Part shown: piece after piece, positions 1 to 16,303 of the stretch
Layout of the letters: every line of letters begins with the position of its first letter
How positions within the stretch are numbered: the stretch's first letter is position 1
Source of the DNA: an uncultured Chloroflexia bacterium
GTDB lineage: Bacteria > Chloroflexota > Limnocylindria > Limnocylindrales > CSP1-4
Direction: 5' to 3'
Assembly: GCA_963720755.1 (NCBI GenBank)
Contig: CAVRGP010000004.1
Location: 1 to 17,601 of the forward strand
DNA: 17,601 nucleotides
Translations under genes and position numbers: made by a program
The notes under the pieces: generated by a model
The model's database searches: none
Told to the model about the DNA's origin: nothing
Seen by the model: only the letters and a program-made list of their open reading frames with translations

Positions 1-408
1 GGATGTCCCGGGCCGGCCTGCGCGGACCCACCGACTGGCTTGACCGTTGAATTGACTGTCGTTGATCCGGCGGTCCCGCCGCCCAGTCGCAACGGGCCGG
101 GCCTCGCCGTCACCATGGCTGCAGGGGCCGCCATCGCGCTGTTCCTGACCGTCAGCGTGGCCTTCTTGGTCGAAAACGTCTTGCCCAACCGAGACCAGCG
201 GGATCGTGCATCGTGGGCAAGCGCAGCGTCGGTCGCGCCCGCTATGGCCGACGCTTCGGTCGCGGGGTACGACGACACCTACCGACGGACATCCGCCACG
301 ATCGGCCGGGACCCGTTGGGTGCAGGCCCTGCCGCCGCCAATGCCCGGATCGCGACGCGCGGTGTCATCAACGACCTCGAGCTAGAGAAGAACCGACGGC
401 CGGAGTGA
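1..408 (+). CDS. C-terminal part of a Wzz/PCP-like (polysaccharide chain-length determinant / CpsC-YveK-like) membrane protein, 5'-truncated by the window
   Basis: Frame +1 is open from base 1 to TGA 406-408. It reads ELTVVDPAVPPPSRNGPG then a hydrophobic helix LAVTMAAGAAIALFLTVSVAFLVE, matching the 'V(I/V)DPAxxPxxP + TM2 ending AFLxE' signature of polysaccharide co-polymerases. The stop overlaps the next gene's GTG (GTGA). Confidence 0.6.
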   Translation, partial: GCPGPACADPPTGLTVELTVVDPAVPPPSRNGPGLAVTMAAGAAIALFLTVSVAFLVENVLPNRDQRDRASWASAASVAPAMADASVAGYDDTYRRTSATIGRDPLGAGPAAANARIATRGVINDLELEKNRRPE

Positions 409-1247
409 GACTGATCGCGATCACCAACCACAAGGGCGGCAGCGCGAAGACAACGACGGTCGTGAATTTGGCGGCGGCGCTGGCGGAACTCGCACAACGG
501 GTACTTGTCGTCGACATGGACCCACAGGGTTCGGCGACCAACTGGCTCGGACGGCCACTGGCGGATCGATCCGTGCTCGATGCCTATCTGTCACGAGCAG
601 ACCTTGTGCCGATGGTCACGCCGACAACCACTCCCGGTGTCGAGCTCGTGCCGTCCTCGCCTTGGCTGGTCGCGGCTGATCGCAGCCAGGAGATCGCGAT
701 CGGTCTCGGCATCATCGGATCCCTGGAGCGACTTCCGGATGCGTGGGACTACGTGCTTGTCGACTGCCCGCCGACGCAAGGTTCGCTGGCGGTCGCCCCG
801 CTAGCCGTGTGTGGATCCGTGATCATCCCGGTCGAGACTAGGGTCCTTGCCCTCACGGGACTGGTCAGCCTCACAGGCACCATGGACGCGATCCGCGAAC
901 GTTTGAATACGACGTTGACGCTCGATGCGATCATCGCCTGCCGTGTAAACCGCACCCGCCACGCCCGGGAGATCGTCCAACGACTGCGCGACGGGTACGG
1001 CGGAACGGTCCTTGAGACCATCATCCGCGAAGCCATAGCCTTGGCCGAGGCCCCCTCGTTTCAACTCCCGATCACGCTGTACGCACCAACCAGCGTCGGT
1101 GCCGACGACTATCGATCGGCGGCCCGCGAGCTTCTTGGCCGGCACCAGCGGGCCGACATGTGGGATCCGAGCCAGATCCCGGATGCGCGAGTTCCGACGT
1201 TCCGGCTTGATCGGCGTGAACTCACAAAGAGTTCGCGTCGCGAATAG
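405..1247 (+). CDS. ParA/Soj-family ATPase (280 aa)
   Basis: GTG at 405 overlaps the upstream TGA. Motifs: IAITNHKGGSAKTTT (deviant Walker A), RVLVVDMDPQG (A'), DYVLVDCPP (Walker B) and the Soj-like C-terminus LAEAPSFQLPITLYAPTSVGADDY. The ORF-track start at 213 is an upstream extension inside the previous gene. Confidence 0.9.
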   Translation: MRLIAITNHKGGSAKTTTVVNLAAALAELAQRVLVVDMDPQGSATNWLGRPLADRSVLDAYLSRADLVPMVTPTTTPGVELVPSSPWLVAADRSQEIAIGLGIIGSLERLPDAWDYVLVDCPPTQGSLAVAPLAVCGSVIIPVETRVLALTGLVSLTGTMDAIRERLNTTLTLDAIIACRVNRTRHAREIVQRLRDGYGGTVLETIIREAIALAEAPSFQLPITLYAPTSVGADDYRSAARELLGRHQRADMWDPSQIPDARVPTFRLDRRELTKSSRRE

Positions 1248-3039
1248 ACGACGCAACCGGCGCATCCTGCATCCGCCTTGGCATCTCGCGGTCGAGCAGC
1301 CTGAGTACCGCGTTCTGCGCGGAGATAGGCCGGACGGTATGGTCGCTGCCAGGCAACGCCTCGATCGTCGCGTTCGGCCATCGGCCAAGCTCGGCCAGGA
1401 TCCCGTCCCGCTCAAGTTCATCAAGAACGACCTCGTCGCCGGAGAACGCCAGAACGACGCGAGTGCCAGAGTCGCGCAAGCGGTCCAAGGTGCGTTCGAG
1501 TTCGACCTTCAGGGCAGGTATCGGTCGGCGATCCCGGAGCCTGCCGGGGACGTGGCTCGCCGATCGCGCCGCCTGACCGACGATCGCGCGACCGATGGAT
1601 CGGAAACGCGCGACTTCGATGTCGCCGTGCACGATCCTTTGCCACGAACCACGTTCGAGCAAGCGTTCGACCTGGCGCGCCTCCCGACGCTCGTCCAGAT
1701 CCGGTGCCCAAACGAGTGCCCTTGGATTTAGGACGATGGATCCGAAGACTCGATCATCGACCGCGGCGCAGTTGAAAGCCCAGTACGCGCCGCCACACAG
1801 ACCGATGAGGGCGAACCGGGGGCCGAAACCCTGGGCCTCGAGCGCGTCGAGGACGGCACGGCCGTGTTCACCTCGATGCGGCGAATAGAATGGTCCCGAC
1901 TCGGAGTACATCGAGGCGTCGCCATCGGAATCGCCGATGCCTTCGAAATCGACACGGAGCGTCGGGATCCCGCGCGCTGCCCAGGAACGGGCTGCCTCGA
2001 CCCATAGGCGGTTGGGTCCGGTGCGGCGGACCGCACCGGCATTGAGGAATACGGCGCATGTATCGGTCGGGCGCGGCTCGACCGGCTGGGCCAGGATCGC
2101 GAATGACTGGCCGAACGGAAGATCGAGACAGAGCGGTGTCTCCTGGATGGCAGTCCCGTCGGCCACGAGATCCAGGTGATCAGCAATGTCAGTCCCGTAG
2201 CGCGGCACCGAACTTGAGGGAGCGGACCACGCCGGCGGCACCGACGATAGCCAGGACCCTACGTGATCGAATACCTCGAGGGGCGGTTCGTAGCGCTCCG
2301 GATGGAAGCACATCGCGCCCCATCCGATACCGGACCCGAAGGAAACGTCCGTGCCGCCTGTTCCGATCCGCCCCCAACGCTCATCGGCTGCCAGCCCGTC
2401 ACGACTCAGGACGAGGGCGCGACGTAGCCCCGCCAGATCCATGTCGGCGATGTCAAGCCGCCCGAGGTCCGCGATCGTCTCGGCCGACATGACGAAGCCG
2501 CCGACCTCCATCCAGCCGTCTGGCAGGGCGTCCGCATCGGGATCGTCGGTCAGTCCGTATCGCGAACTCTGCAGGCTCGCGAATGCTCGCTGCTCTCGGA
2601 GGAACGTGCGCCCTCGAGCCGGAGATGCCCAAACGACCAATTCGTCGATCGGAGCGCCGTGCTCGAGTGCCGCACCGGCGATCAAACCACCGAGTCCCAG
2701 TCCGATGACGGCGACGCGCGCGCCCGTCGATTCGGCCAACCACGTCGAGGCTGCCACCACCGAGTTCCGCCAGGCGTCGACGCGACCACCATCGCCGGGA
2801 GAACCCGCGCTGTCCCCACACCCGGGGTAGTCGATCCGCAGGGTCGGATAGCCCAGCGACGCCAGGTTCATCGCCCAAGTTCGTCGGGCGCGGTACGAGG
2901 CCACTTCGTCCCAGCCCCAGGGTGGGCAGATGAGAACCGCCGTTCCCGGCGATGACACCGTCGCGGCATGGAACATCCCGAAGATCGCAAGCTCTCCCGC
3001 ACCGAGATACACGGGACGAGCTGATGGCGGTGTGCTCAA
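1222..3039 (-). CDS. Tandem (fused) alpha/beta-hydrolase-fold protein, resembling a fusion of exosortase-A-system-associated hydrolase 2 and hydrolase 1; putative thioesterase/acyltransferase (605 aa)
   Basis: Two repeated modules: GYPTLRIDYPGCGDSAG...VIGLGLGG...VVWASP and GIPTLRVDFEGIGDSDG...LIGLCGGAY...IVLNP...SGDE...SDHT. The TTG start overlaps the GH2 stop (TTGA at 3039-3036). Confidence 0.85.
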   Translation of the reverse strand: MSTPPSARPVYLGAGELAIFGMFHAATVSSPGTAVLICPPWGWDEVASYRARRTWAMNLASLGYPTLRIDYPGCGDSAGSPGDGGRVDAWRNSVVAASTWLAESTGARVAVIGLGLGGLIAGAALEHGAPIDELVVWASPARGRTFLREQRAFASLQSSRYGLTDDPDADALPDGWMEVGGFVMSAETIADLGRLDIADMDLAGLRRALVLSRDGLAADERWGRIGTGGTDVSFGSGIGWGAMCFHPERYEPPLEVFDHVGSWLSSVPPAWSAPSSSVPRYGTDIADHLDLVADGTAIQETPLCLDLPFGQSFAILAQPVEPRPTDTCAVFLNAGAVRRTGPNRLWVEAARSWAARGIPTLRVDFEGIGDSDGDASMYSESGPFYSPHRGEHGRAVLDALEAQGFGPRFALIGLCGGAYWAFNCAAVDDRVFGSIVLNPRALVWAPDLDERREARQVERLLERGSWQRIVHGDIEVARFRSIGRAIVGQAARSASHVPGRLRDRRPIPALKVELERTLDRLRDSGTRVVLAFSGDEVVLDELERDGILAELGRWPNATIEALPGSDHTVRPISAQNAVLRLLDREMPRRMQDAPVASSIRDANSL

Positions 3040-5627
3040 GTCGGCCCCGTCATCACATGGATCGGCAGTTCCCCGACCAGGTTGAGCGCCGTCACTGTCC
3101 CGCCGACGATGGCCTCGTCGAGGGACCGTGGGCAGAGTTCGATCTCACGGCTGTGACCGGGCTCGACCGAGAACGCGTCATCTGACCATCGAGCGCCGTC
3201 CACGTGGATCCGAACGCCATAGGCGAGCCGTCGCGAGCGGATCATGAGGCTGCGCGTCCCGTCCGGGTTCGAGCGCGTCGTTGCCTCCAGACCCATCCGA
3301 TCAGCCGACTCCGCGATGAGCGGCCGGCCGGCCGGGAACCGGAACGACTGCGACAGCGGCACGAGCCCGCCTTCACCCTCTCGCTCGAGGGTCACGACGA
3401 TCGCATCATGACCGGGCGCTCCGAAACGGTAGGCCCAGGCTGCGTCGACGAACTGGCCAAGCACCGTCTCTACGTCTCGCTCCAGGGAACCGTGTGGCGG
3501 CAACGACACGACCTCCGAGCCTTCCCAAACCGGCCGCTCGGAGTCGTGATAGAGGGTGACCCGCAAACGAGCGAGGAGTTCGTGTGGATGGTCATTGGCG
3601 GCATGGATCAGGATACCGCCGAGTCCCTCGTCGGTCGTCCACACGGCCACCGGGGCGAGGATCCGTCGGAGGTGGTGATAGGCGACCTTGGGGGACCCCA
3701 GGTGATCGAGCACGCCCCAGCCTGCGCCGGGCACGAGGTCGCGGAGCCACAGGACGAGGGCGCCGCCGCATGGCGATCCAGCTCGCCGCCATTCGCCGAA
3801 GACTTCTGACATCACTTCACCGGTGACCGCGCGAGAGAGTTCGAGGTACCGGTCCGGGTCGGCCAGGCGAAGTTCGAGCGGATCGACGCCGAAGGTCGAC
3901 TCCAGGTAATGATCGCGGACATCGTCGAAATCCCAATCGGCGCCGACGTCCCGGGGGACACTCGCTTTCCAGCGTGGATCATCGATCGGGCCTATGGACG
4001 AACCGGCGAGGAGTTCGTCGACGACGCTCTCGTCGGGGACGTTCGCGAAGGCCAGGCATTCGGCGGCGAACCGGACACCGGCGACCCTCGCATCGACGAG
4101 CGGTCGACGGTAGCCACCGACCCCGTAATAGTTCGCGACCCCACGGTCGGGACGAAACGGCAGGTCACCGCCGAACGGGGCGGATGGGACGTACACCGCG
4201 TCGGCCCCCGACGCAGCCAGGATCCCAGGAACGGTCGAGCCGAAGAATCCTCCTCGACCCAGGCCCGGGTCGAGACCGAGCATCGCGACCTGCTGTTCGA
4301 TCTCGCTGTTGCCGCAGACGACGGCGAGACTCGGTCGTCCGGCGAGCCCCTCAATCACGTCCGTCACTTCGCGTTCGGCGGTTGCTCGGAACGCGTCATC
4401 GGCGAACGGATAGTCGAGGTTGGCGAACATCAGGTCCTGCCAGACGAGGATGCCAAGCTCGTCGCACAGATCGTGGAACGCATTGGTCTCGTACGCCCCG
4501 GTCCCGGGCACCCGGAGCACGTTCATCCCGGCGTCGCGGACCGTCTGGATCGCAGCGCGGAGCTGGTTCGTGGACGGCGTGAGTCCGATCGGGTCGATCG
4601 GCGTCCACACGGCACCGCGCGCGAACACCCGGACGCCGTTGATGTGCAGGTCGAGGCCATCGCGCTCGATGTCGTGATCAGGGGTCGGTCCAGCAGCCAA
4701 CGTGCGGAATCCGACGCGGCCGGCGTCGACCGACACGGAGCGATCACCAAGATCGATGGCCACGCGGACGGCATAGAGGGCAGGGTCGCCGTGGGTATGC
4801 GGCCACCAGCGGGCGACCTGCGGGATCCGGACCGTGCCTGCGACGATGACGCCGCCGCCATCGACCCGAACGTCCACAGGCTCCCGGGTGCGTCCGGTCG
4901 GACCTTCGACCTCGACGAAGGCGGCATCGATCGTTCGGCCGCCGAGCGTCCGGACCCGGAGTTCTACGCCGAGGCTCCCGTCGTCGCCATCGAGTTCGGG
5001 GCGCAGGCGAAGGCGCTCGACGACGACATTTCGGCGACGCTCGAGCCGGATCGGACGCCACGGGCCTACGGCAGGAGGTCCGGGGGCAAACCCCGGAGCC
5101 CGGCCGATGAGCATCGTCCTGAACCAGCGCAGGCCGCCGTCCGTCACGAGCCGGGTGCGCCAGCGGGCACGCGGCTTGCGAGCGACGCGCAGCGCGGGCC
5201 CGAGCGCTCGACAGCGGATCAGGAGTTCGCTCTCGCCCCTGAGTCGGTCACCGACCTCGATCTCGTGGCGCTCGAACATGGACTCGCTGGACAGCAGCAG
5301 GTCGCCATCGAGGAAGACCTCGGCCAGGGTCGCGATCCCGTCGAGACAAAGCACCACTTCCTCACCGGGTCCTGCCGATGCCGCTGTGAAGGTGGTCTTG
5401 AACCACCAATCCTCGGCGTCAAGATCGCCGGCCGGCTGGCCCGCATCCGCCAGGACCTTGGCGGCGGTGCCGGGCACCTGGGCCGGCTGCCACGGCGACC
5501 GCTCACCGGGTCGCGTCGCGTTCGCGTCTCCATCGGACGTGACGGCTGTGGCGACCCAGCCGCGGTCGAGTTGGACGACATCATGACCGTCGACGCGTCC
5601 GCGTCGGGTCGGAACCGCGGCTGGCAT
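3036..5627 (-). CDS. Glycoside hydrolase family 2 protein, beta-mannosidase-like architecture (863 aa)
   Basis: Motifs: LDGIATLAEVFLDG...SESMF, WWPHTHGDPALY, RVGFRT, INGVRVFARGAVW, GMNVLRV, LCDELGILVWQDLMFA, CGNSE (acid/base Glu, codon 4304-4302), RFAAEC (nucleophile Glu, codon 4061-4059), WSDDAFSVEPG. ATG at 5627 lies just past the DUF1839 stop (4-nt gap). The ORF-track start at 5936 overlaps DUF1839 and is rejected. Confidence 0.88.
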   Translation of the reverse strand: MPAAVPTRRGRVDGHDVVQLDRGWVATAVTSDGDANATRPGERSPWQPAQVPGTAAKVLADAGQPAGDLDAEDWWFKTTFTAASAGPGEEVVLCLDGIATLAEVFLDGDLLLSSESMFERHEIEVGDRLRGESELLIRCRALGPALRVARKPRARWRTRLVTDGGLRWFRTMLIGRAPGFAPGPPAVGPWRPIRLERRRNVVVERLRLRPELDGDDGSLGVELRVRTLGGRTIDAAFVEVEGPTGRTREPVDVRVDGGGVIVAGTVRIPQVARWWPHTHGDPALYAVRVAIDLGDRSVSVDAGRVGFRTLAAGPTPDHDIERDGLDLHINGVRVFARGAVWTPIDPIGLTPSTNQLRAAIQTVRDAGMNVLRVPGTGAYETNAFHDLCDELGILVWQDLMFANLDYPFADDAFRATAEREVTDVIEGLAGRPSLAVVCGNSEIEQQVAMLGLDPGLGRGGFFGSTVPGILAASGADAVYVPSAPFGGDLPFRPDRGVANYYGVGGYRRPLVDARVAGVRFAAECLAFANVPDESVVDELLAGSSIGPIDDPRWKASVPRDVGADWDFDDVRDHYLESTFGVDPLELRLADPDRYLELSRAVTGEVMSEVFGEWRRAGSPCGGALVLWLRDLVPGAGWGVLDHLGSPKVAYHHLRRILAPVAVWTTDEGLGGILIHAANDHPHELLARLRVTLYHDSERPVWEGSEVVSLPPHGSLERDVETVLGQFVDAAWAYRFGAPGHDAIVVTLEREGEGGLVPLSQSFRFPAGRPLIAESADRMGLEATTRSNPDGTRSLMIRSRRLAYGVRIHVDGARWSDDAFSVEPGHSREIELCPRSLDEAIVGGTVTALNLVGELPIHVMTGPT

Positions 5628-5631
5628 GGCC

Positions 5632-6603
5632 CTAGCGTACGGCGTCGTCGAGGTAGCCGATGGCCTCGGTCCAGTCCCTGCCCATATCGTCGATCGTCGG
5701 CGCCGCGTCGAACGGTCGTCGACGAGCCAGCTTGAACCCGAGCACCTTGGACGCCTCGACGATCCGAGCGAGGGCCGCGGACGCCCCGTCACCCTCATCA
5801 CCGAGGAGCCATTCGACATGTGAGGCGAGCAGTTCGAACCCAGCCCCGGCCATGCGCACGGTCGCGAACGCATAGGCGTGGTACATCGCCGCGTCGCCCT
5901 CGAGCAACGACGGGAGGTCGCGTTCCAGCCGATCACCGAAGCGCTCGAATGGATTGCCGGGCGGGATCAGGGTCATGTGATGTCGCAGGATCGAGCGAGC
6001 CTCGCCCCGGAGATCCTCGCCGGAGAGCGGAGTCCCGACGTCGAAGCGAACGAGCTCCGCGTACGGCGGGAGGACATCCTCCGATGAGCCGGCGATGCGG
6101 AAGATCCCGCGGTAGTCATCGCCGGCCAACTCGTACAGCGAGGTGTTGTGGTAGTAGCGAAGGCGAGCTGCGTCGAGATCGATCGCCTCCGCTGCGATGC
6201 TCGTCTTCACGTGCTCCCGGTGGTAGCTCGTGGCCAAGGTGTCCGGGAGATGCCAGGCGTCAAGCTCGACGGTCATGGTCCGCCCATCGGCTAACAGCTC
6301 GGCCATCTGGGTGGGGATATCCCGGTACGGCTGCATCTCGTGGATGTCGATCCCGAACAGCGTCTCCAGGTCGGTCGGCGAGGGCTTGAAGAAGGTCCAC
6401 TGGTCACCTTCGAAGTCCTGCCTGACGGTCGGCCCGAGCGCGGCAAGAGGCTCGACGCCATGAGCATGGAGTAACTCGATCAGGAGGTCCGTGTAGCAGT
6501 TCGTCTCGACATAGGTTCGGTCGCCCGAGTGCAGGGCGTGTGGACGATAGGTCGCCGGATCGTGACCGAACAGGCTGACCATGGACGGGGCCGCCGAGGT
6601 CAC
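5632..6603 (-). CDS. DUF1839 family protein (323 aa; alternative ATG start 6582)
   Basis: Characteristic segments HALH...ETNCYTDLLIELLH, DFEGDQWTFFKP, ELDAWHLPDT..SYHREHVKTSI, YYHN, LPPYAE, YHAYAFATVRMAGAGFELLA. The GTG start overlaps the ligase TGA (GTGA 6603-6600). The family is recalled as a regular neighbour of aa:CP ligases. Confidence 0.82.
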   Translation of the reverse strand: MTSAAPSMVSLFGHDPATYRPHALHSGDRTYVETNCYTDLLIELLHAHGVEPLAALGPTVRQDFEGDQWTFFKPSPTDLETLFGIDIHEMQPYRDIPTQMAELLADGRTMTVELDAWHLPDTLATSYHREHVKTSIAAEAIDLDAARLRYYHNTSLYELAGDDYRGIFRIAGSSEDVLPPYAELVRFDVGTPLSGEDLRGEARSILRHHMTLIPPGNPFERFGDRLERDLPSLLEGDAAMYHAYAFATVRMAGAGFELLASHVEWLLGDEGDGASAALARIVEASKVLGFKLARRRPFDAAPTIDDMGRDWTEAIGYLDDAVR

Positions 6604-7529
6604 GGCCACAGTTCCCGCCGGACGTCCTCCGGCCACGTCGCCGGGTCCAGTCCGTGCCGTCGCAGCAATCCAAGGGTAATACGTTCCAACCCGAACCCGA
6701 GGCAGGCGGTGTGGGCAGGTCCGCCATCGGCCATCGTGATGCCGAAGGTGTGGGCGAAATGGTCCTGGTGGTAGTTGAACGATGCGACCGCTGTCGGTTC
6801 TGGATCGGTGATCTGGATCAGTACTTCGAACTTGAGTTCCTGGGCGCGCTGGTTCGCGGCGAGCATCCGACCTGAACGGCCGAAGAACGGGTCGGCGGCG
6901 ACTTCCGGGTGCGGATCGAGCCCGACCCTGGCCAGGATCTCCGTAGCGCGGTCGCGCCACGAGTCACGCCACGCCGCGACAGTATCGGGTTCACCGAGGC
7001 GGATGATCTCGCGCTGGTGGAACATCTGGAGCCTGGCCGGATCCCCGGATGGCTCGTGGCGGAACACGTAGGCGCCCCCGGCGTCGATCAACGCGCCGCC
7101 GGCCGGCAGCGGCCCGCGACGACCGATCGCCGGGTAGACGGGATAGCAGGCCGCCGGGAGCAGGACCAGGTCCGTCATCGACTGGAATCCGCTCCAGTCT
7201 CCGTGATGGCTGGCCAGGGCCTCCTGCTCGACGGCTTCGCGCTCGGTCCCGTCGAACGAGAAGATGGTCCCGGCGAGGTGCGGGAACGACTGCAGGTAGC
7301 CGCTCGCCTCGAAGTGGCGCCGGGGCAGGATCGGCGGGAACCGGACCACTTCCGCCTGGTCGGGGGCCGCCACCCGGCTGACGAGCTGGTCGAATCCCTG
7401 CAGCACGCCCTCGAAGACCGCGTTCCGACCGTAGACGCCCGGCTCCCCGGTCTCGATGAGCAGGCCGTGGTCGATCAGTTCCGACAGGAATGCGGCCTGG
7501 TCGGTGGAGGCCGCGCGGAAACCGGCCAT
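6600..7529 (-). CDS. Amino acid--[acyl-carrier-protein] ligase (class II aaRS homolog of methanogenic-type SerRS catalytic domain; Bll0957/Atu2573 type), 309 aa
   Basis: Motifs: SGYLQSFPHLAG, LLPAACYPVYP, class II motif 2 FRHEPS.DPARLQMFHQRE, SFNYHQDHF and motif 3 HTACLGFGLER. A Cys/Glu/Cys set fits the Zn site. There is no tRNA-binding domain. The start overlaps the upstream TAA (TAATG). Confidence 0.93.
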   Translation of the reverse strand: MAGFRAASTDQAAFLSELIDHGLLIETGEPGVYGRNAVFEGVLQGFDQLVSRVAAPDQAEVVRFPPILPRRHFEASGYLQSFPHLAGTIFSFDGTEREAVEQEALASHHGDWSGFQSMTDLVLLPAACYPVYPAIGRRGPLPAGGALIDAGGAYVFRHEPSGDPARLQMFHQREIIRLGEPDTVAAWRDSWRDRATEILARVGLDPHPEVAADPFFGRSGRMLAANQRAQELKFEVLIQITDPEPTAVASFNYHQDHFAHTFGITMADGGPAHTACLGFGLERITLGLLRRHGLDPATWPEDVRRELWP

Positions 7530-8704
7530 TAGACGTCCTTGGCGATCAGCAGCAGGCTGGCATTCCGCTCGTGGATCCGTTCGTTCGCGATCATCAGCGA
7601 CGCGGACATCGAGTCGCGCAGGTGCCGGCCCACGCTGAACGGCGTGTCGTTCTTGTACCCGACGATTCCGCAGATCCCCATCGCGCCCTGGCAGACGCGC
7701 GGCGCCTGTTCGGAGGCCGCGATCTTCAGGTTGTTGAAGCGCAGGATCGTGGCCATGGTGGACAGCCGCTCACGGTCTGCGTCCCGGTCGATGTCAGTGA
7801 AGTCCCGGAGCCCCGACGACACTTCGGCCCGGAGCAACGACAGCTCGCTCATGAGGTGGGACAGCCGCTGCGCGGTCGGCGGCACGACATCGGGTCGCTG
7901 CTTGGCCGACGCCCGAACGAAGGCCCTGGCGCGGTCGAACGCGTCCGTCGCGATCCCGAGCCACAGCTGTGACCAGAGGATGTGGGTGATCGGCACCATC
8001 GACTCGGTGGCCACGACCGGGAACGGTGTCGCCAGGATCTGGTCGGTCGGGAATTCGGCGCGGACCACGAACCCGGGCGAACACGTCCCTCGCATGCCCA
8101 GTGGATCCCAGGTGCCCTTCTGCTCGAGTTGGACCTGATCGCGGCGGGTCACGACCACGACCTGATCGCCTGGTTCGGCGTCCGGCGATCGGCGGAGCGT
8201 CGTGAACAGGTCGTCCGCGTAGGCGGCATATGAAACCGTCGGGGCTTGCTTCTCGAACGTCGCACGCCCGTCACCGGCTGGCGTCACGGCGGCGATCGAT
8301 CGGCCGAGGTCTCCGCCGGTGCCGATCTCCGACGTGGCCGAGGCGATGAGACGTTGGTCCGCGACCACGTCCCGCAGGTATGCCTCGTGCCACGGAGCGC
8401 CCTCGAGGTGGCGGACCATGGAGGCGATCTGGATCTGGTGCATCGCGAAGACCATCGCACTGGAGCCGCAGCGGCGGCCCAGCTCGAACGAGGCCGCAGC
8501 GATCGCCTCGAACGAGACGCCCCCACCGCCTAGGTGCGTCGGCACGAACGCCGAAAGGGCTCGCTCCGCGCGCAATGCGTCGAGCGCTTCGACCGGGAAG
8601 CGAGCGTTGCGGTCGACGTCGTCGGCGTTCGGTCCAGCGACCTCGTCGGCGATCCGACGGATGGCCGTCAGGAACGCCCGATCCGCATCGACGGCGATGC
8701 TCAT
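7529..8704 (-). CDS. Acyl-CoA dehydrogenase-fold flavoprotein (atypical; probably acts on aminoacyl-ACP), 391 aa
   Basis: Motifs: VDRNARFPVEALDAL, VPTHLGGGG, SSAMVFAMH, ATSEIGTGGD, WDPLGMRGTCS, NNLKIAASE, GICGIVGY, VGRHLRD. The ATG overlaps the ACP stop (ATGA). Confidence 0.88.
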   Translation of the reverse strand: MSIAVDADRAFLTAIRRIADEVAGPNADDVDRNARFPVEALDALRAERALSAFVPTHLGGGGVSFEAIAAASFELGRRCGSSAMVFAMHQIQIASMVRHLEGAPWHEAYLRDVVADQRLIASATSEIGTGGDLGRSIAAVTPAGDGRATFEKQAPTVSYAAYADDLFTTLRRSPDAEPGDQVVVVTRRDQVQLEQKGTWDPLGMRGTCSPGFVVRAEFPTDQILATPFPVVATESMVPITHILWSQLWLGIATDAFDRARAFVRASAKQRPDVVPPTAQRLSHLMSELSLLRAEVSSGLRDFTDIDRDADRERLSTMATILRFNNLKIAASEQAPRVCQGAMGICGIVGYKNDTPFSVGRHLRDSMSASLMIANERIHERNASLLLIAKDV

Positions 8705-8982
8705 GCCGCCGAGACTCCGAGCTGCTCGAGTGCTCCCCGGATGGAGGCGACGCTCTGGAAGACGCTTCGCTTCAGCATCGCATCGGGGAACTCGACATCG
8801 AATTCGGCTTCGAGGCCGAGCATCAGATTGACGCTCGCATGGGAGGTCATACCGGCCTGGTACAGGTCCGAATCCTCGCCCAGCGAGGCGATACCGACCG
8901 GTAGGCGCCCGTGTTCACCGATGACCTGCCGGATCCGGCGATCCACATCTGTTGCTTCGTTCACGACCATCGCCTGACTCAT
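8701..8982 (-). CDS. Acyl/aminoacyl carrier protein (93 aa; alternative ATG 8970)
   Basis: DSDLYQAGMTSHASVNLMLGLEAEFDVEFPDAMLKRSVFQSV is an acidic four-helix ACP pattern, with the putative phosphopantetheine Ser in GMTS (codon 8844-8842). The 243-aa ORF-track version (start 9432) is over-extended. Confidence 0.9.
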   Translation of the reverse strand: MSQAMVVNEATDVDRRIRQVIGEHGRLPVGIASLGEDSDLYQAGMTSHASVNLMLGLEAEFDVEFPDAMLKRSVFQSVASIRGALEQLGVSAA

Positions 8983-9007
8983 TCCCCCACGTCGGATTGC
9001 GGCGACG

Positions 9008-9020
9008 AGCATACGACACC
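9008..9020 (-). promoter_or_regulatory. Candidate -10 promoter element (GGTGTCG-TATGCT) for the ACP operon
   Basis: TATGCT (a TAnnnT match) lies 25 nt upstream of ATG 8982. An 11/13-identical copy occurs at 10378-10390 upstream of the methyltransferase. Confidence 0.3.
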
Positions 9021-9084
9021 GCGGCAGGATCGCCGCCGGACTGGCCGCCTTTGGGTTGCTCGCGCGCACCGTCGCGGAACCCAC

Positions 9085-9417
9085 GCCCGGCGACTGGAAC
9101 GCGGCGGGAGAGACGACGCTGTACCTTGGTGAACCGGCCGGCTCCGTCGTCGAACTGGAGAACGGCTTCCGCTTATACCACGCAGGTGACACGGACTTGT
9201 TCGGGGACATGGCCAGATCCGTGAGCTCCATCGCCCGGATATCGCTCTCCGACCGATCGGTGGGCCCTTCACCATAGGCCCGCGCGAGGCTGCCCTTGCC
9301 AATGGGACCTTCCCGTTCCTGGCCGGGACACCGGACGAGCTGCGCGCCGCAATCGATCGCCGCGGCCTGGCCGACGTTACGATCCACGCGCCGGAGCCGG
9401 GAGGCAGCGTCCCCTGA
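9085..9417 (+). pseudogene. Degraded metal-dependent hydrolase (MBL-fold, UPF0173/YtkL-like), 3' remnant
   Basis: Frame +2 reads GDWNAAGETTLYLGEPAGSVVELENGFRLYHAGDTDLFGDMA. After a frameshift at about 9215-9216, frame +1 continues IRELHRPDIALRPIGGPFTIGPREAALA-NGTFPFLAGTPDELRAAIDRRGLADVTIHAPEPGGSVP* (TGA 9415-9417). The N-terminal HxHxDH half and the 'xxLxxxxVIPxHY' segment before GTFP are missing. Confidence 0.8.
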
Positions 9418-9452
9418 TTCGCGGCACAACATCCAACCGGCCCACCAATCGC

Positions 9453-10259
9453 CTACGTCCGGCGAGCGACGTAGTGCAGTTCTGACGAGTCACGGCCGGT
9501 GCCGCCCGGCTCGACCGAGTGCCCTTCAAGATCGAGGCACTCGATCAACGTGAACCCAAGCGCGACGAACTGACGTTCCTGAGCGTCGCGCGAGATGTAG
9601 TAGTGGAGTGCCGAGAAATCCACAGAACTGTCGTTGAATATCGCGTAATTGACCTCCTCGTGCTCGTAGGGGGTCACGCGGCGGCGATTGCGAATCCGGC
9701 GCGGGAGCCGACCGACTGTTGCCACGAATTCGCCCACACCCATCGACCGGACGGCGAGCGATCCGCAATCCCGCCCCGCATGGTCCCGATTATGGCTCGA
9801 CATGATGAGCAGACCATCGGGAACGAGGACCTCACGGATGGCCCCCAGGACCGTCCGGCGATCCGCGTCATCGAGCACATCCAGGACGTTGAACCCCGCC
9901 ACGACCACGTCGAATCTCGCTGATCCGAGTTTGCCAACATCGCGCAGATCACCGACCTCGAACGCCCCGGCCGGGTAGTGACGACGGCAGTACGCGACCA
10001 TCGATGCCGAGAGGTCGATCCCAAGCACTGAGCGACCGAGCTCGAGGAGGTAGCCGGTGAGACGGCCGGCCCCGCTGCCGAGCTCCATCACGGCGCCGGA
10101 CAGCTCCTCCCGATAGCGAATCAGGAGGATCACCTCGACCGGTCGCAGTCGACGGTTGGCATATTCCCGTACATGGTTGCCATCCCGCCACAGACGCTCG
10201 TTCGCCCGTCGCTGGGCGATGTCCGACTCGATCGATCCCGACTCGGTCGCAGTCGTCAT
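9453..10259 (-). CDS. Class I SAM-dependent methyltransferase (268 aa)
   Basis: Motif I VMELGSGAGR, post-I GIDLSASMV, motif II FDVVVAGFN and motif III VLVPDGLLIMS. ATG 10259 (MTTATES) is preferred over the ORF-track start at 10382. Confidence 0.88.
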   Translation of the reverse strand: MTTATESGSIESDIAQRRANERLWRDGNHVREYANRRLRPVEVILLIRYREELSGAVMELGSGAGRLTGYLLELGRSVLGIDLSASMVAYCRRHYPAGAFEVGDLRDVGKLGSARFDVVVAGFNVLDVLDDADRRTVLGAIREVLVPDGLLIMSSHNRDHAGRDCGSLAVRSMGVGEFVATVGRLPRRIRNRRRVTPYEHEEVNYAIFNDSSVDFSALHYYISRDAQERQFVALGFTLIECLDLEGHSVEPGGTGRDSSELHYVARRT

Positions 10260-10446
10260 ATCGGGTATCCGGACGGGGTGGCGACGTACAACCGCCGAAG
10301 ACCCAAGCAAGAAGCGATCACGAGGGCCATGCCTTTGGATTGTGCCGTCGCGAGAGGTGGTCAAAGTTGCTGGCGCAAGCATACGGCATCATCGCCCTGC
10401 ATCCTTCGACCCAGGACATATGGATTGCGCTGACGCACCGTTGTTC

Positions 10447-10504: not shown

Positions 10505-11341
10505 CTAGTCCTCGCCGCCCAGTCGTTCCTCGTATCGCGCATCGCGCCAGGCGAGGGCCGCCTTGAGACCATCGCGCCGGACGATGGCATCCCACTCCCG
10601 CTGCTCGGGGGTATCCGCGGCGTTGATGATGGCGCCGAGATCGATCCCAGCCTCGACCGCGATGCGAAATCCGGTCGCGTCCATCGCCCGGTTGAGCATC
10701 CGCTTCGTCGGAGCCATGACGTCGGGCGGCGTCCGGGCCAGACGGTCCGCCAGGGCGTCCACCTCGGCGGCGAGGGCCTCCGCGGGGACGACCCGGTTGA
10801 TCAACCCGATCCGCTCTGCCTCGACGGCATCGATGAGGTCGCCGGTCAGGAGCAGCTCTCGGGTCTTCTTCTGGCCGATGAGGAAGGGCATCAGCAGGGC
10901 CACCGGCGCCGACCCGTAGCGGATCTCCGGCTCGCCCATCTTGGTTCCCTCGGCCGCGATGACCAGATCGCAGGCCATCGCCAGTTCGAGGCCCCCGGCC
11001 AACGCGTAGCCATGGATCTGAGCGATGACCGGCTTGGGACAATCCAGCACATGAAGCGTGGCCGCGACATCGGTCGCGAGGAGCTCGCGCCACTCGACGG
11101 GACCGGGCGTCCCACCGTCGGCTTCCTCGGTCAGGTCGTACCCGGAGCAGAACGCGCGGCCCGCCCCCTGGAGGACGATGACCCGGACTCGCTCGTCGGC
11201 GATCGCGGCGTCGATCGCCTCGGTCAACCTCCGAACCAGATCCGCCGACAGGGCGTTGAGCTTGTCCGGGCGGTTCAGGGTCAGGCGGACACCCCAGCCC
11301 GTCGGTTCGGTCAGGAGGATCGGATCGTTCGGCGAGGTCAC
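10505..11341 (-). CDS. Enoyl-CoA hydratase/isomerase (crotonase) family protein (278 aa)
   Basis: Motifs: LTLNRPDKLNALS, GAGRAFCSGYDL, PKPVIAQIHGYALAGGLELAMACD, GEPEIRYG, ELLLTGDLIDAVEAERIGLINRVV. The GTG overlaps the ligase stop (GTGA). Confidence 0.95.
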   Translation of the reverse strand: MTSPNDPILLTEPTGWGVRLTLNRPDKLNALSADLVRRLTEAIDAAIADERVRVIVLQGAGRAFCSGYDLTEEADGGTPGPVEWRELLATDVAATLHVLDCPKPVIAQIHGYALAGGLELAMACDLVIAAEGTKMGEPEIRYGSAPVALLMPFLIGQKKTRELLLTGDLIDAVEAERIGLINRVVPAEALAAEVDALADRLARTPPDVMAPTKRMLNRAMDATGFRIAVEAGIDLGAIINAADTPEQREWDAIVRRDGLKAALAWRDARYEERLGGED

Positions 11342-13542
11342 GATGCGGGCCCTTCCAGCACGACCAGGGCATCGACGGCGATCGCGCCGGACGTGGAGGC
11401 GATGACCGGGTTGAGGTCGATCTCGAGCAGGTCGGACCGCTCGACGCCGAGCTGCCCGAGCGCGACGAGCATCGACACGATTGCCCCACGATCGACCGGC
11501 AGTCGACCGCGAACGCCGCGCAGCAGGGCCGCGCCCCTCAGATCGTCGAGCATCGCGTCTGCCGCGCTCGCATCGAGCGGCGCCAGCCTGATCGAGACGT
11601 CGTCGAGGACCTCGGTCAGGATGCCCCCGAGACCGACCATCACGACCGGTCCGAACTGCGGGTCGCGACGAAGACCGACGATCAACTCGACGCCTGGGCT
11701 CGCCATCGGTTGGACCAGCAATCCCCGGATGGTGAGACCGTGGTGGCGGCCTGTGTCGAGCAGCGTGAGGGCCGCCCCGTAGACCGCGTCATCGCCGCGC
11801 AGGCCGAGAGCGACGGCACCCAGGTCGCTCTTGTGGGTGAGGCCGACCGCGTCGAGCTTGAGCGCCACGGGCTGACCGATCGTGCGGGCGGCCGCCACCG
11901 CGGCAGCGGCGTCGCTGACCGCGACGGCCTCGATGGTCATGATCCCGGCGGCACGGGCGAGTGCCAGGCTCTCCCGTTCGGACAAGGACATCGGCGGTCG
12001 GGCGGCGGCAGAAGGCGCTGGGTCGGCACCGTAGCTGGTCCGGTCGGCCGCCAGCTCAGGCCACCCGGTCCGCCACGGCCCGCCCGAACGTCGACGCTCG
12101 TGGTGAGCCTCCCACCGGGCCACCTGGGCGATCGCCCGGAACGCCGGCACGGCGCCACGCAACAGGGGCGCGCCGCTGCCCTCTCCGTCGAGCAACGCCT
12201 TCGTCTCGGGCGGTGGCTCGCCAGAGGTGAGCGACACGTACGCGGGCAGGATGGCCGGTCGGTCGCGGGTCGCCGCCAGCAGACCGGCCGTCACCTCGTT
12301 CGCGGTCGCCACCTCGGATACGAGTGAGCGGTACGGGAAGTCATGGACGATGACCAGGACGTCGTAGGCGGCCGACGCGGCCATCGCCTCGAACGCCGCG
12401 CCATAGGCAGCCCCGGGGTCGTCCGCGCCCCACGGGTCGAGCGGGTTGCCGACGTACCCCATCGTGGGAAGCGCCTCGAGGATCGCCGCCCTGGCGCTCG
12501 CGGGGATGGGTGGCAAGTCCAGGCCGGTCGTCGGCACGAGGTCGGCGATGAGCGACGCTTCCCCGGTCGAGACCGTCACCACCCCCGTCCGGCCTCGGCC
12601 GACACGGCGGCCGGTCCGCCGGATACCCTCGACGAGTTCGGCGGCCTCGAGCAGCTCGTCAAGGTCGCGGCAGCGGATGACCCCGGCGGCGTCCAGCGCC
12701 GCATCGGTGACCCGCGCCTCGCCGGCCAGTGACCCGGTATGGGCCATGGCGGCCGTTTTCGCCTGCTCGCTCCGACCGACCTTGACCGTCATGATCGGCT
12801 TCCCGAGTTCCAGGGCCCGGTCGGCAAGGGCCAGGAAGCGCTCCGGGCGCTTGAACCCCTCGACGAACAGGATCACCGAGCTCGTCTGCGGGTCATCGAG
12901 GCAGTAGGCGAGGTAGTCGCACACGTCGAGCACGACTTCCGATCCGCAGCTGATGATCCGCGAGAAGCCGATCCGATCACCCGAGTGGACGAACGCGTCC
13001 GACACGGACCCGGATTGGGCGATGCCCGCGACGCCGCCTCGCGGCAGGTATGGCGAGACGTCGCCGATGTAGGTCGCGCTATTCGTGGTCAGATCGATGA
13101 CGCCCATGCAATTCGGCCCGAGGAGCGCTAGTCCGTGTTCGCGGGCGATCCCGGCAACCTCGGCCTGCATCGCGGCGGCTGCGGGACCGCCCTCGACGAC
13201 CCCGCCCCCGGGGATGACGACGGCCGGCACGCCGGCAGCGGCCGCCGCGGCTGTGACCGATCCGGCACGCAACGGGTTGAGAGCCACGACGACGACGTCG
13301 GGCCGCTCCGGGAGCGCCTCGATCGATGGGTGGCAGGCTTGTCCGTACAGTTCGTCGTACTTCGGGTTGACGAAGTGACAGCGCGTCGAGCTGCCCAGGA
13401 CGCGCAGGTTGTCTCGAACGGTCTCGGCGATCCAGGATCGGGGCGAGGCTCCGACGACGGCGACGCTTCGGGGCGCGAACAGGGGTCGAAGGTCGATCGT
13501 GCCGGCCGCCGTGGTCCGCGCATCGTCGCTCGGCGACGTCAC
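11338..13542 (-). CDS. ADP-forming acyl-CoA synthetase (acetate--CoA ligase family, fused alpha/beta), 734 aa
   Basis: Motifs: LFAPRSVAVVGAS, GPNCMG, AQSGS, KVGRSE..KTAAMAHTGSLAG (phospho-His), GNPLD, and ATP-grasp HKSDLGAV, ELIVGLRRDPQFGPVVMVGLGG, EIDLNP. GTG 13542 overlaps the ACAD stop. The ORF-track start at 14001 is over-extended. Confidence 0.92.
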   Translation of the reverse strand: MTSPSDDARTTAAGTIDLRPLFAPRSVAVVGASPRSWIAETVRDNLRVLGSSTRCHFVNPKYDELYGQACHPSIEALPERPDVVVVALNPLRAGSVTAAAAAAGVPAVVIPGGGVVEGGPAAAAMQAEVAGIAREHGLALLGPNCMGVIDLTTNSATYIGDVSPYLPRGGVAGIAQSGSVSDAFVHSGDRIGFSRIISCGSEVVLDVCDYLAYCLDDPQTSSVILFVEGFKRPERFLALADRALELGKPIMTVKVGRSEQAKTAAMAHTGSLAGEARVTDAALDAAGVIRCRDLDELLEAAELVEGIRRTGRRVGRGRTGVVTVSTGEASLIADLVPTTGLDLPPIPASARAAILEALPTMGYVGNPLDPWGADDPGAAYGAAFEAMAASAAYDVLVIVHDFPYRSLVSEVATANEVTAGLLAATRDRPAILPAYVSLTSGEPPPETKALLDGEGSGAPLLRGAVPAFRAIAQVARWEAHHERRRSGGPWRTGWPELAADRTSYGADPAPSAAARPPMSLSERESLALARAAGIMTIEAVAVSDAAAAVAAARTIGQPVALKLDAVGLTHKSDLGAVALGLRGDDAVYGAALTLLDTGRHHGLTIRGLLVQPMASPGVELIVGLRRDPQFGPVVMVGLGGILTEVLDDVSIRLAPLDASAADAMLDDLRGAALLRGVRGRLPVDRGAIVSMLVALGQLGVERSDLLEIDLNPVIASTSGAIAVDALVVLEGPAS

Positions 13543-14714
13543 CCGACGACCCGATCGACGCCCCGCTTCTCGAGCGCCCGGGCGATGATCATCCGCTGGA
13601 TCTCCGAGGTGCCCTCCCAGATCCGGTCCACGCGCAGCTCGCGCAGGAAGCGCTCGGGGGCGAACTCCCGCATGTAGCCTCGCCCGCCGTAGACCTGGAC
13701 CACGCGATCGGCGCACCGCCAGGCGGCTTCCGAAGCGAATAGCTTGGCGAGCGACGCCTTGGCATGGACGACCTTCCGGTCGGCCCCCGTATCGGCGAGC
13801 CAGGCGCACTCCCGTGCGAGCAGACGTGCCGCGGAGGCATCGGCGGCGGAATCTGCCAGAGGGAAGCTGACCCCCTGGAAGTCGTAGATCCGCTCGCCGA
13901 ACTGGATGCGCTCGGTCGCCCATTCGAGTGCGAGGGAGAGCAATCGCTCCATCGCCCCCGCACACCGAGCGCCGATATGGATCCGCTCCTCCACGAACCA
14001 CTCGTTGGTCAGCTCGTCCGCCCGGCCGACACCGCCCAGGACAGCCGCATCTGGCACCCGAACGTCGGTCAGGACGAACTGCGGATGCCGGTCGGCGAAC
14101 GTGTGGGTGTAGTCCGGATCGTGCTTGACGGCCAGTCCCGGCGTGTCGTAGTCGACCAGGAACAGGGTCGGCCGGCGCGAATCACCGTCGACGACCAGGC
14201 AGTGGAAGATCATGAAGTCGGTGTCGTCGGGTCCGGTGACGAACCACTTCTCGCCGTTTAGGAGATAGTCCCCGGTCGCCGGGTCGCGCACGGCGGTCGA
14301 GCTGAGCGTCCTGGCGTCCGACCCGGCGCCGTCCTCGGTCACGGCGTAGCTGCCCGACCGCTCCCCGCGGAGGGACGGCTCGAGATACCGCCGGCGCTGG
14401 TCGGCGTCGGCGTGGAGCAGGACGTTGTAGGCGCCCGGGATATACGACCACAGGCCGCCGGTCACCTGGCCGAGCTGTTCGTGGACGAGGACCTGCTCCA
14501 GAGCCGACCAGCCCTGGCCCCCGGCCTCGACCGGGAACGAACCGCCCTGGAGACGGGCGTCGATCGCCGCCGCCCGGATGGGATCGCCCCAGTGCCGTGG
14601 GACTCGACCGCCTGCCCGCTCGAACTCGACTTCGAGCGGCTGGAGGACGTCCCGGACGAACGTTCGGGCACGGGCCTGGAGTTCGAGTTGGGCTGGGGTC
14701 AGGGTCAGGTCCAT
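13539..14714 (-). CDS. Acyl-CoA dehydrogenase (canonical; alternative start 14750)
   Basis: N-terminus MDLTLTPAQLEL, then YAVTEDGAGSD, LNGEKWFVT, RIQFG..I.DFQGV, AKLFASE, VQVYGGRGY and RVDRIWEGTSEIQR with the catalytic Glu. Confidence 0.95.
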   Translation of the reverse strand: MDLTLTPAQLELQARARTFVRDVLQPLEVEFERAGGRVPRHWGDPIRAAAIDARLQGGSFPVEAGGQGWSALEQVLVHEQLGQVTGGLWSYIPGAYNVLLHADADQRRRYLEPSLRGERSGSYAVTEDGAGSDARTLSSTAVRDPATGDYLLNGEKWFVTGPDDTDFMIFHCLVVDGDSRRPTLFLVDYDTPGLAVKHDPDYTHTFADRHPQFVLTDVRVPDAAVLGGVGRADELTNEWFVEERIHIGARCAGAMERLLSLALEWATERIQFGERIYDFQGVSFPLADSAADASAARLLARECAWLADTGADRKVVHAKASLAKLFASEAAWRCADRVVQVYGGRGYMREFAPERFLRELRVDRIWEGTSEIQRMIIARALEKRGVDRVVG

Positions 14715-14786
14715 CGCCGTCAAGGATGCCCCACCCGGACCATCGGCCATCGGGTCCGTCGCGGGGCGCGGGACGAGCCGGTCCGG

Positions 14787-16232: not shown

Positions 16233-16303
16233 GGAAGGGATCTCCTCATGGGGTACGGTTGGCATCGTACAACCGCCCGGACAACCCCGAACCGAGGTCG
16301 ACG
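16233..16303. promoter_or_regulatory. Compact divergent intergenic/promoter region (ALDH operon <- -> ppk2)
   Basis: There are 71 bp between divergent starts. RBS-like GAGGAG (minus strand) and GAGGT (plus, 16294-16298) are present, and a -10-like TACGAT occurs on the minus strand at 16269-16264. Confidence 0.5.

Follow-up and report, generated by a model that had tools for sequence, protein, structure and literature searches.

The window analysed here is the whole of contig C4 (CAVRGP010000004.1; 17,601 bases) from a metagenome-derived assembly of a Chloroflexia bacterium (GCA_963720755.1; 3.0 Mb in 15 contigs, 93.6% complete, 2.7% contamination). Its minus strand carries a cassette of six co-oriented and tightly packed genes (1222–8982) that encode, in this order, an acyl carrier protein (ACP), a flavoenzyme of the acyl-CoA dehydrogenase (ACAD) fold, an amino acid:[carrier protein] ligase (aa:CP ligase), a DUF1839 protein, a glycoside hydrolase of family 2 (GH2) and a fused double alpha/beta hydrolase. 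This arrangement is a real operon and goes beyond chance, as most of 80 related loci, and proteobacterial plasmids too, preserve the order and strand of the genes. With regard to function, we give somewhat less than an even chance to the reading that this widespread orphan aa:CP-ligase/DUF1839 cassette specifies a soluble, cytoplasmic, thiotemplated pathway which operates without nonribosomal peptide synthetase (NRPS) modules and acylates a sugar-type acceptor.

All gene junctions listed in a preliminary description of this DNA are seen when the sequence is read directly: ATGA between the ACP and ACAD genes, TAATG between ACAD and ligase, GTGA between ligase and DUF1839, a 4-nt gap between DUF1839 and GH2, and TTGA between GH2 and hydrolase. 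The family labels given there to the six proteins agree with Pfam and NCBIfam scans (Table 1), and its general interpretation is supported as far as activation by the ligase, tethering by the ACP, transfer by DUF1839 and a cysteine-dependent hydrolase are concerned, while its link to Wzz and polysaccharide genes is not. Translation of the ACP possibly starts at a Met codon at 8970 instead of the first codon, because a sister copy of the cassette on contig C3 of the same assembly has a stop at that first codon. That the cassette might be a gene relic or a set of chance open reading frames (ORFs) was considered and rejected, given its conservation across phyla and the low ratio of nonsynonymous to synonymous substitution rates (dN/dS) between the C3 and C4 copies, which is 0.05–0.22 for ACP, ACAD, ligase and DUF1839 (four of six genes measured) and indicates purifying selection.

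A pattern scan with one genome per species confirmed at least 582 DUF1839 loci. The locus counts given in the following, out of 80 or fewer, refer to the best 80 of these, all from metagenome-assembled genomes of Chloroflexota or Solirubrobacterales-type Actinomycetota and with a DUF1839 protein 58–69% identical to that of the window; denominators below 80 count evaluable loci only. DUF1839 was also found in 65 plasmid records, of which six were inspected. On plasmids of Azospirillum sp. B510 and Mycetohabitans rhizoxinica the six-gene set is complete and its order unchanged, five genes without the hydrolase are present in the records from a Caballeronia sp. and Burkholderia gladioli, and a decayed remnant lies beside transposases in that of Rhizobium leguminosarum. 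The sixth, from Rhizobium binae, is taken up below.

A ligase-centred survey covered 401 genomes sampled from the window's phylum; 13 matches reached E 1e-20 or better, and seven of these exceeded the family cut-off (the window's own genome is counted in both figures). Four of the six other above-cut-off loci have all six genes and one has five up to the contig end, while none of the cassette partners lies alongside three low-scoring ligase-like genes. The linkage of GH2 and hydrolase genes to aa:CP ligases, on which the earlier interpretation depended, thus holds in most of the 80 loci, on two of the plasmids and in most of the ligase loci of the same phylum.

Table 1. Cassette genes and two neighbouring genes in the window, with the placement of cassette homologues in related loci
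Product	Length (aa)	Position	Strand	Family or domain match	Canonical place and strand	Elsewhere in locus
Carrier protein (ACP)	93	8701..8982	-	PF00550 24.4 bits; NF005480 101.3 bits (cut-off 72)	70/72	2
ACAD-fold flavoenzyme	391	7529..8704	-	Acyl-CoA_dh_N 44.5 bits	74/75	1
Amino acid:[carrier protein] ligase	309	6600..7529	-	NF005479 408.9 bits (cut-off 357)	75/78	1
DUF1839 (GTG start)	323	5632..6603	-	PF08893 319.8 bits
GH2	863	3036..5627	-	N2 domain + Ig (immunoglobulin-like) domain	71/78	2
Fused double alpha/beta hydrolase (TTG start)	605	1222..3039	-	two alpha/beta-hydrolase halves	50/69	7
S-adenosylmethionine-dependent methyltransferase	309	9453..10382	-	Methyltransf_25 57.9 bits
ParA/Soj-type P-loop ATPase		213-1247	+	AAA_31 126 bits; ParA_partition 87.5 bits

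Predicted activities of the six proteins

The ligase aligns through residues 10–305 with structures of Bradyrhizobium Bll0957 (E 1.8e-78 for 4h2w and 2.2e-76 for 3mey), covering Bll0957 residues 31–328. It consists of a class II core resembling seryl-tRNA synthetase (SerRS) and has no tRNA-binding domain; of the 518 positions in the methanogen-type SerRS model it matches 348–503 only. It has in common with Bll0957 the motifs PAACYPVYP, FRxEPS and HTxC, which are kept in 44 homologues and may contribute to a site for zinc and the amino acid. The ACP, whose gene lies two places upstream of that for the ligase within the operon, is of the NF005480 (PRK07081-type) family, in which AGMTSHASVN is the window's version of a motif, AGM[TS]SHASVN, that is invariant in 27/27 aligned homologues; Ser47 within it is presumed to be the phosphopantetheine site. 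With homology of this strength, and with both proteins above curated cut-offs, the cassette probably loads a small amino acid on its own carrier protein. Glycine or alanine is preferred by the homologues that have been studied, according to review literature, and a 2022 review (PMC9437257), citing a paper of 2013, describes the biological role of aa:CP ligases as unknown.

In DUF1839, positions 2–311 of the 313-position PF08893 profile are covered, at a score far above the threshold of 22.5 bits, and no other Pfam family, BtrH_N included, matches at E 0.01 or better. The AlphaFold2 (AF2) model, with a predicted local distance difference test score (pLDDT) of 94.6, comprises a papain-like N-domain and a helical C-domain. 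By VIA-align its best match is CcbD (Z 20.0, root-mean-square deviation 3.3 Å, 285/323 residues aligned), followed by AziU3 at Z 18.5 and CtaG at Z 17.6. The alignments with CcbD and CtaG extend over residues 19–323, and no unrelated fold exceeds Z 8. Foldseek E-values for these fold matches range from 6e-8 to 2e-4, and sequence identity to CcbD and CtaG is only 9–13% (9–10% for CcbD). Cys36 opens the helix formed by residues 36–47 of the model. At least 90% of 35 diverse homologues have this Cys (34/35 by reading the alignment), as do 10/10 closer ones; His131, His152 and Asp142 are invariant among the 35. CcbD, according to PMC12945683, takes proline from a carrier protein onto its catalytic Cys and from there acylates the amino group of a thiooctose. 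The authors of PMC12865890 unite CtaG, AsbE and BtrH in a class of papain-like carrier-protein-dependent ligases, whose N-terminal part is papain-like and whose C-terminal part is helical, and describe a ping-pong reaction via a Cys thioester as the mechanism of the CtaG class. From its modelled fold, DUF1839 is presumed to be a carrier-protein-dependent transacylase with Cys36 as the nucleophile.

Both C-terminal Pfam domains of the ACAD-fold protein fall under their cut-offs. The top matches of the ACAD family profile are KijD3 (9.4e-20), DnmZ (5.4e-19) and a short-chain ACAD (6e-19), which means that two amino-sugar N-oxygenases, KijD3 and DnmZ, are matched about as well as a short-chain ACAD, while prolyl-ACP dehydrogenase is matched far less well (2.6e-6). 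As read from the alignment, the position of the catalytic Glu of short- and medium-chain ACADs (in YEGT) is occupied by Ile372, after a conserved RD pair, and no invariant Glu is found near it. The enzyme is presumed to modify the tethered aminoacyl group. Since the canonical Glu appears to be missing and the nearest solved relatives are amino-sugar N-oxygenases along with short-chain ACADs, oxidation at or next to the amine may be slightly favoured over plain alpha,beta-dehydrogenation. A flavin reductase gene (PF01613) is located downstream of the hydrolase in 9/80 loci, all of Chloroflexota type (L005, L006, L008, L009, L010, L014, L018, L024 and L062), and an HpaB-like oxygenase is encoded in seven loci; reduced flavin for the ACAD-fold enzyme could come from the products of these genes, or the genes may have nothing to do with it.

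The GH2 protein has a beta-mannosidase-like architecture, with E-values of 1.5e-46 and 3.2e-46 against the beta-mannosidase structures 6bye and 2je8. Glu442 (GNSE) aligns with the NNE and Glu523 (AAEC) with the SEYG motif of 6bye, whose glutamates are presumably the acid/base and the nucleophile of the TIM barrel, and each is present in 55/55 GH2 family members.

The two halves of the last protein appear to be distant kin of the exosortase-associated hydrolase 2/hydrolase 1 pair. In 31/31 homologues the best NCBIfam matches are TIGR03101 for the N-half and TIGR03100 for the C-half, although the window's protein scores only 91 bits (cut-off 202.75) and 69.4 bits (cut-off 168.45), respectively. 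At the nucleophile position the N-half has Gly in 40/44 sequences, while the C-half carries the motif G-L-C-[SA]-G with Cys415 conserved in 44/44 and His567 likewise in 44/44, in keeping with the cysteine nucleophile described earlier. A Foldseek search with an AF2 model (pLDDT 86.9, predicted template modelling score 0.88) turned up esterases, lipases and thioesterases of a general kind, at about E 1e-11, and no specific relative; in the protein atlas there was nothing beyond double-hydrolase clusters without a name.

The proposed pathway and its alternatives

In the pathway that we envisage, the Zn-type SerRS-like ligase would activate a small amino acid with ATP and thioesterify it to the phosphopantetheine on Ser47 of the ACP, a step which we infer for the window's proteins from experiments with homologues. 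The ACAD-fold flavoenzyme might then modify the tethered aminoacyl group. DUF1839 would take the acyl group onto Cys36 and pass it to an amine in a ping-pong reaction of the kind known from CcbD, CtaG and BtrH, as its fold, its conserved cysteine and the gene order suggest. Acceptor or product would be a glycoside or amino sugar, proposed solely because of the linkage to the GH2 gene, and GH2 would bind, trim or transglycosylate it. The Cys/His half of the hydrolase may serve as a second acyl relay and release the product, or act as an editing thioesterase, and the nucleophile-free half may be a binding or scaffold module. The product would be either a soluble metabolite or an envelope-glycan precursor. 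No signal peptide or membrane segment is predicted in any of the six proteins, and therefore any sugar chemistry would be cytoplasmic. We regard such a sugar-acylation mechanism as plausible. Hints of a sugar link are the two GH2 glutamates kept in 55/55 sequences, a glycosyltransferase family 2 (GT2) gene directly behind GH2 in four loci, the polysaccharide surroundings of the B. gladioli copy, and sugar-type genes (GT2, polysaccharide deacetylase, DegT, epimerase), which occur within the locus in at least 27/80 cases when ORF clusters present in six or more loci are counted.

Several observations weigh against this reading. The motif GWDWGP of 6bye has become GFAPGP in the cassette GH2, so that WDW is replaced by F-A-P (F in 45/55, A in 47/55 and P in 44/55 family members). 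We take WDW to be part of the -1 mannose subsite, where the sugar is bound; with its loss the sugar cannot be deduced, and the cassette GH2 may not act as a classical glycosidase. A family scan of the 17.6-kb window found no glycosyltransferase, sugar-nucleotide or polysaccharide export gene, and the window likewise holds no dedicated AcpS-type phosphopantetheinyl transferase. The figure of 27/80 for sugar-type genes was obtained without control loci and therefore cannot demonstrate enrichment. The Rhizobium binae plasmid record has only the four-gene core, with neither GH2 nor hydrolase, and in the remaining above-cut-off ligase locus of the window's phylum genes for a thioesterase and a C39 ABC exporter come after that for the ligase. 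The prediction that each of the six proteins is soluble and cytoplasmic rules out that they decorate a surface polymer directly. Finally, the fold leaves the acceptor unfixed, as that of CtaG is, according to PMC12865890, a carrier-protein-bound beta-alanine chain and no sugar.

A more specific form of the sugar-acylation pathway would have the cassette make N-(oxidised aminoacyl) glycosides, a class of products not described before: glycine or alanine would be loaded, oxidised by an N-oxygenase-like ACAD and relayed through Cys36 and Cys415 to an amino sugar that GH2 holds or produces. We consider this rather unlikely. If true, it would explain why GH2 keeps its catalytic glutamates while losing the mannose-binding motif, and it would provide a first function for aa:CP ligases, for DUF1839 and, by extension, for the exosortase-associated hydrolase 1 and 2 pair.

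Two other readings of the same genes are, in our view, unlikely, and a third is very improbable. The four-gene core that exists without GH2 and the same-phylum variant, in which thioesterase and C39-peptidase ABC exporter replace DUF1839, GH2 and hydrolase, would fit a peptide-type assembly line, in which a CtaG-like DUF1839 attaches each carrier-bound aminoacyl unit to the free amine of another, so that an oligo(Gly/Ala-derived) chain grows on the ACP; release or cyclisation of this chain would fall to the Cys/His half of the hydrolase, and GH2 would have only a late role in tailoring, activation or self-protection. The presence of two cysteine acyl-enzyme catalysts, DUF1839 with Cys36 and the hydrolase with Cys415, also fits such a scheme, as does the likeness to CtaG (Z 17.6), which according to PMC12865890 couples two carrier-bound substrates through one tunnel. 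The same paper gives two distinct carrier proteins for CtaG, however, and each cassette has one; the best fold match is CcbD, an amino-sugar acylase; and GH2, which follows DUF1839 in 71/78 loci and at a distance of 4 nt here, is linked more tightly than a late tailoring enzyme would be expected to be. The preliminary description had proposed that an oxidised aminoacyl group is put on a sugar or surface polysaccharide. In the surface form of this proposal the target would be exopolysaccharide (EPS), lipopolysaccharide (LPS) or a polymer of the teichoic type, and the process would resemble that of Dlt or AlmEFG; we give it a low probability of about the same order. It can draw on the B. gladioli copy, which sits between genes for an undecaprenyl-phosphate glucose phosphotransferase, ManC and a GT-A protein, on the Acyl_transf_3 membrane acyltransferase gene directly upstream of the ACP in Mycetohabitans, and on the resemblance, in 31/31 sequences, of the hydrolase halves to an exosortase (EPS)-associated pair. 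Against it, those halves score far under the TIGR03100 and TIGR03101 cut-offs, and no exosortase (PF09721) was matched in the window's genome, although at 93.6% completeness its absence is unproven. The conserved cassette has no membrane or export component, and its cytoplasmic proteins leave no room for decoration at the cell surface itself. Polysaccharide genes, which had been expected nearby, lie beside the operon neither in the window nor at the sister copy on C3, and the gene that the operon faces, described as Wzz-like, encodes a ParA/Soj-type ATPase, because of which the Wzz link to the cassette fails.

The very improbable reading concerns lipid or fatty-acid processing, with the ACP and ACAD acting on acyl chains and DUF1839 on lipid-linked proteins or phospholipids. 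It derives from the supplement of PMC10318531, where "fatty acid/phospholipid protein processing" is predicted for DUF1839 on account of the neighbouring ACP and ACAD genes; the main text of that paper suggests that DUF1839 processes glycans at the cell wall. The loader of the cassette is an amino-acid ligase of the aminoacyl-tRNA synthetase type and no fatty-acyl ligase, the ACAD lacks the canonical catalytic Glu in the alignment, the structural kin of DUF1839 move aminoacyl or aroyl groups to amines, and the linkage of GH2 would be left unexplained. Acylation of a sugar-type acceptor remains the reading that we prefer.

Relation to known systems, spread and a second copy

The set of ACP, ACAD, ligase, DUF1839 and GH2, which the preliminary description treated as new, is already contained in the supplement of PMC10318531 (2023), where proteobacterial DUF1839 genes consistently adjoin those for GH2, aa:CP ligase, ACAD and ACP. 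The window cassette is a further copy of this described orphan gene set and no new kind of system. Our literature searches found no paper that assigns a product to an aa:CP-ligase/DUF1839 cassette. Bll0957 of Bradyrhizobium (PDB 3mey, 4h2s–4h2y) and Atu2573 of Agrobacterium belong to the same NF005479 family as the window's ligase and have an adjacent carrier protein of family NF005480, and ACAD, DUF1839 and GH2 are common to the window cassette and the proteobacterial aa:CP ligase neighbourhood (PMC10318531 supplement). The window copy differs from the Bradyrhizobium and Agrobacterium systems in being located in a Chloroflexota-type metagenome-assembled genome, in having no phosphopantetheinyl transferase of its own, and in the methyltransferase gene upstream.

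The closest structural parallel, CcbD/LmbD of lincosamide synthesis (PDB 7yn1, 7yn2, 9dkr), is like DUF1839 over the full-length fold; both have a Cys where the first helix begins, and in both the C-terminal domain is helical. The donor of CcbD is an aminoacyl group on a stand-alone carrier protein, as proposed for DUF1839. Identity between the two is at the low level given above, and CcbD uses Cys-His-Glu (PMC12945683) where an arrangement C-(T/S)-H is reported for DUF1839 (PMC10318531); furthermore, loading is by an NRPS adenylation domain in the lincosamide pathways and by an aminoacyl-tRNA synthetase paralogue in the cassette. CtaG, BtrH and AsbE (closthioamide, butirosin and petrobactin) have the two-part papain-like plus helical architecture of DUF1839, but the cassette has one carrier protein and not two, and the coupled GH2 and double hydrolase are not known from any of these pathways. 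In butirosin synthesis a flavoenzyme tailors an acyl group that derives from an amino acid and is borne by an ACP, before the group is passed on to an amine of the aminoglycoside. The exosortase A-associated hydrolases 2 and 1 are separate proteins, in contrast to the fused halves in the cassette, which score far below the family cut-offs; we take TIGR03101 and TIGR03100 to be a pair of unlike alpha/beta hydrolases that travel with an acyl-activating enzyme and an ACP. Dlt D-alanylation and the glycylation of lipid A by Vibrio AlmEFG follow the same logic: once activated, the amino acid is held by a small carrier protein, from which it is handed over to an envelope glycoconjugate. The parts are non-homologous, however: activation is by a DltA-type adenylating enzyme as opposed to an aminoacyl-tRNA synthetase paralogue, and the entirely cytoplasmic cassette has no MBOAT or other membrane transferase.

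The six-gene set spans at least Chloroflexota, Actinomycetota, Alphaproteobacteria and Betaproteobacteria, including plant- and fungus-associated bacteria. DUF1839 relatives number 3014 proteins at E 1e-5 or better among 8000 candidates scored, and 869 cluster representatives at E 0.001 or better. Given this spread over phyla, a solved function of the cassette would annotate thousands of genes, and the fold link between DUF1839 and CcbD points to a concrete assay with loaded ACP, DUF1839 and amine or amino-sugar acceptors. What the window itself contributes is only one more copy; of further value are the two alleles that have diverged within this assembly, and the clarity with which the active sites of hydrolase and GH2 can be read.

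The second copy of the cassette lies on contig C3 at about 19916–27737 (loci L002 and L003). Its proteins are 90% (ACP), 95% (ACAD), 95% (ligase) and 97% (DUF1839) identical to those of C4. Its GH2 is split over two frames that are 88% and 77% identical to the C4 protein, and its hydrolase, on the opposite strand, is only 51% identical. At the nucleotide level the cassettes are 90.6% and the 7.1-kb right flanks 99.3% identical; dS is 0–0.04 for the right-flank genes and 0.22–0.27 for ACP, ACAD, ligase and DUF1839. The methyltransferase segment is missing in C3. The two copies represent either two strains binned together or a duplicated locus in which one allele was later replaced. To the left of the C3 copy (L003 4049–11929, corresponding to C3 12049–19929) the flank is unlike that of the window and contains genes for a DUF1616 membrane protein, an ATP-grasp protein and an NAD-binding dehydrogenase (DUF1932), as well as three ORFs without Pfam match.

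In a quick tree of DUF1839, 17 Chloroflexota-type sequences form one clade (SH-aLRT (Shimodaira–Hasegawa-like approximate likelihood ratio test) support 95) nested among 63 Solirubrobacterales-type sequences, and two other genomes of the window's phylum possess a distant DUF1839 version that groups with proteobacterial plasmids. This branching suggests transfer between phyla, in a direction which a quick tree with midpoint rooting and long outgroup branches does not establish.

Variation in layout takes several forms. In four Baekduia/Conexibacter-type loci (L013, L015, L019 and L064), the usual place of the hydrolase directly behind GH2 is taken by a GT2 gene of the same strand, at about 13300–14320 in the three full-length loci and at 3790–4728 in the short contig L019. 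The variant locus L100 (G201:C61, 10597–14991) consists of a divergent phosphopantetheinyl transferase–ACP gene pair followed by ACAD, ligase, type II thioesterase and C39-peptidase ABC exporter genes, and has no DUF1839, GH2 or hydrolase in the usual place. Among metagenome protein representatives there are apparent ligase–DUF1839 fusions (P0125, P0185, P0213, P0228, P0231 and P0253) and one of DUF1839 with GH2 (P0261); these are possibly not true fusions, because the overlapping junctions allow a single frameshift or gene-calling error to create them.

Flanking genes

Upstream of the cassette, the methyltransferase has as its top NCBIfam match a daptide-type methyltransferase, at 76.5 bits and under the cut-off of 175. 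A homologue is present within 24/80 related loci, often directly at one cassette end, and we consider it a possible optional seventh member of the cassette, one that is absent from the sister copy. An AcpS-type phosphopantetheinyl transferase gene (PF01648) lies directly upstream of the ACP in 53/72 loci, at about 7200–7650 in the locus coordinates of L005–L084, and elsewhere in the locus in eight more. The only AcpS-type homologue found elsewhere in the window's genome is a housekeeping one (C11:567988–568350), and a search of the 470-nt gap upstream of the ACP (8983–9452) for a decayed transferase gene found none. This gap between methyltransferase and ACP holds a frameshifted relic of a metallo-beta-lactamase-fold gene (9074–9436, plus strand), an intact paralogue of which (C1:125433–126425) adjoins a bacterial sugar transferase gene (PF02397); the same gene is also located upstream of the cassette in L009, L010 and L018.

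The right flank (10505–17122) is a cluster for acyl-CoA metabolism, with enoyl-CoA hydratase, ADP-forming acyl-CoA synthetase, ACAD and aldehyde dehydrogenase genes. It ends with a PPK2 polyphosphate kinase gene on the opposite strand and is nearly identical in contig C3. Rfam models detected no riboswitch or other RNA element in the window, the single match (E 0.026) being a spurious internal ribosome entry site. A promoter and terminator scan gave no promoter-like site and four terminator-like sites, an uninformative number with 2.9 expected by chance. Sampled words of the window were present at 14–38% in four soil-metagenome DNA runs from one study, with no RNA run listed.

On the other side of the cassette, the gene at 213–1247 scores best with ParA-type families and contains no Wzz Pfam domain. 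Its matches to polysaccharide tyrosine-kinase families amount to only 17–34 bits, far under the cut-offs (eps_fam 34 bits against 108, Wzc 17 bits against 1068), so that the protein is ParA-like and not Wzz-like or a polysaccharide tyrosine kinase. This ParA/Soj-like ATPase is an orphan, and neither a ParB gene nor one for replication appears in the window. It has an arginine-rich N-terminal extension of about 65 aa, and its gene is convergent with that of the hydrolase, the 3' ends of the two overlapping by 26 nt.

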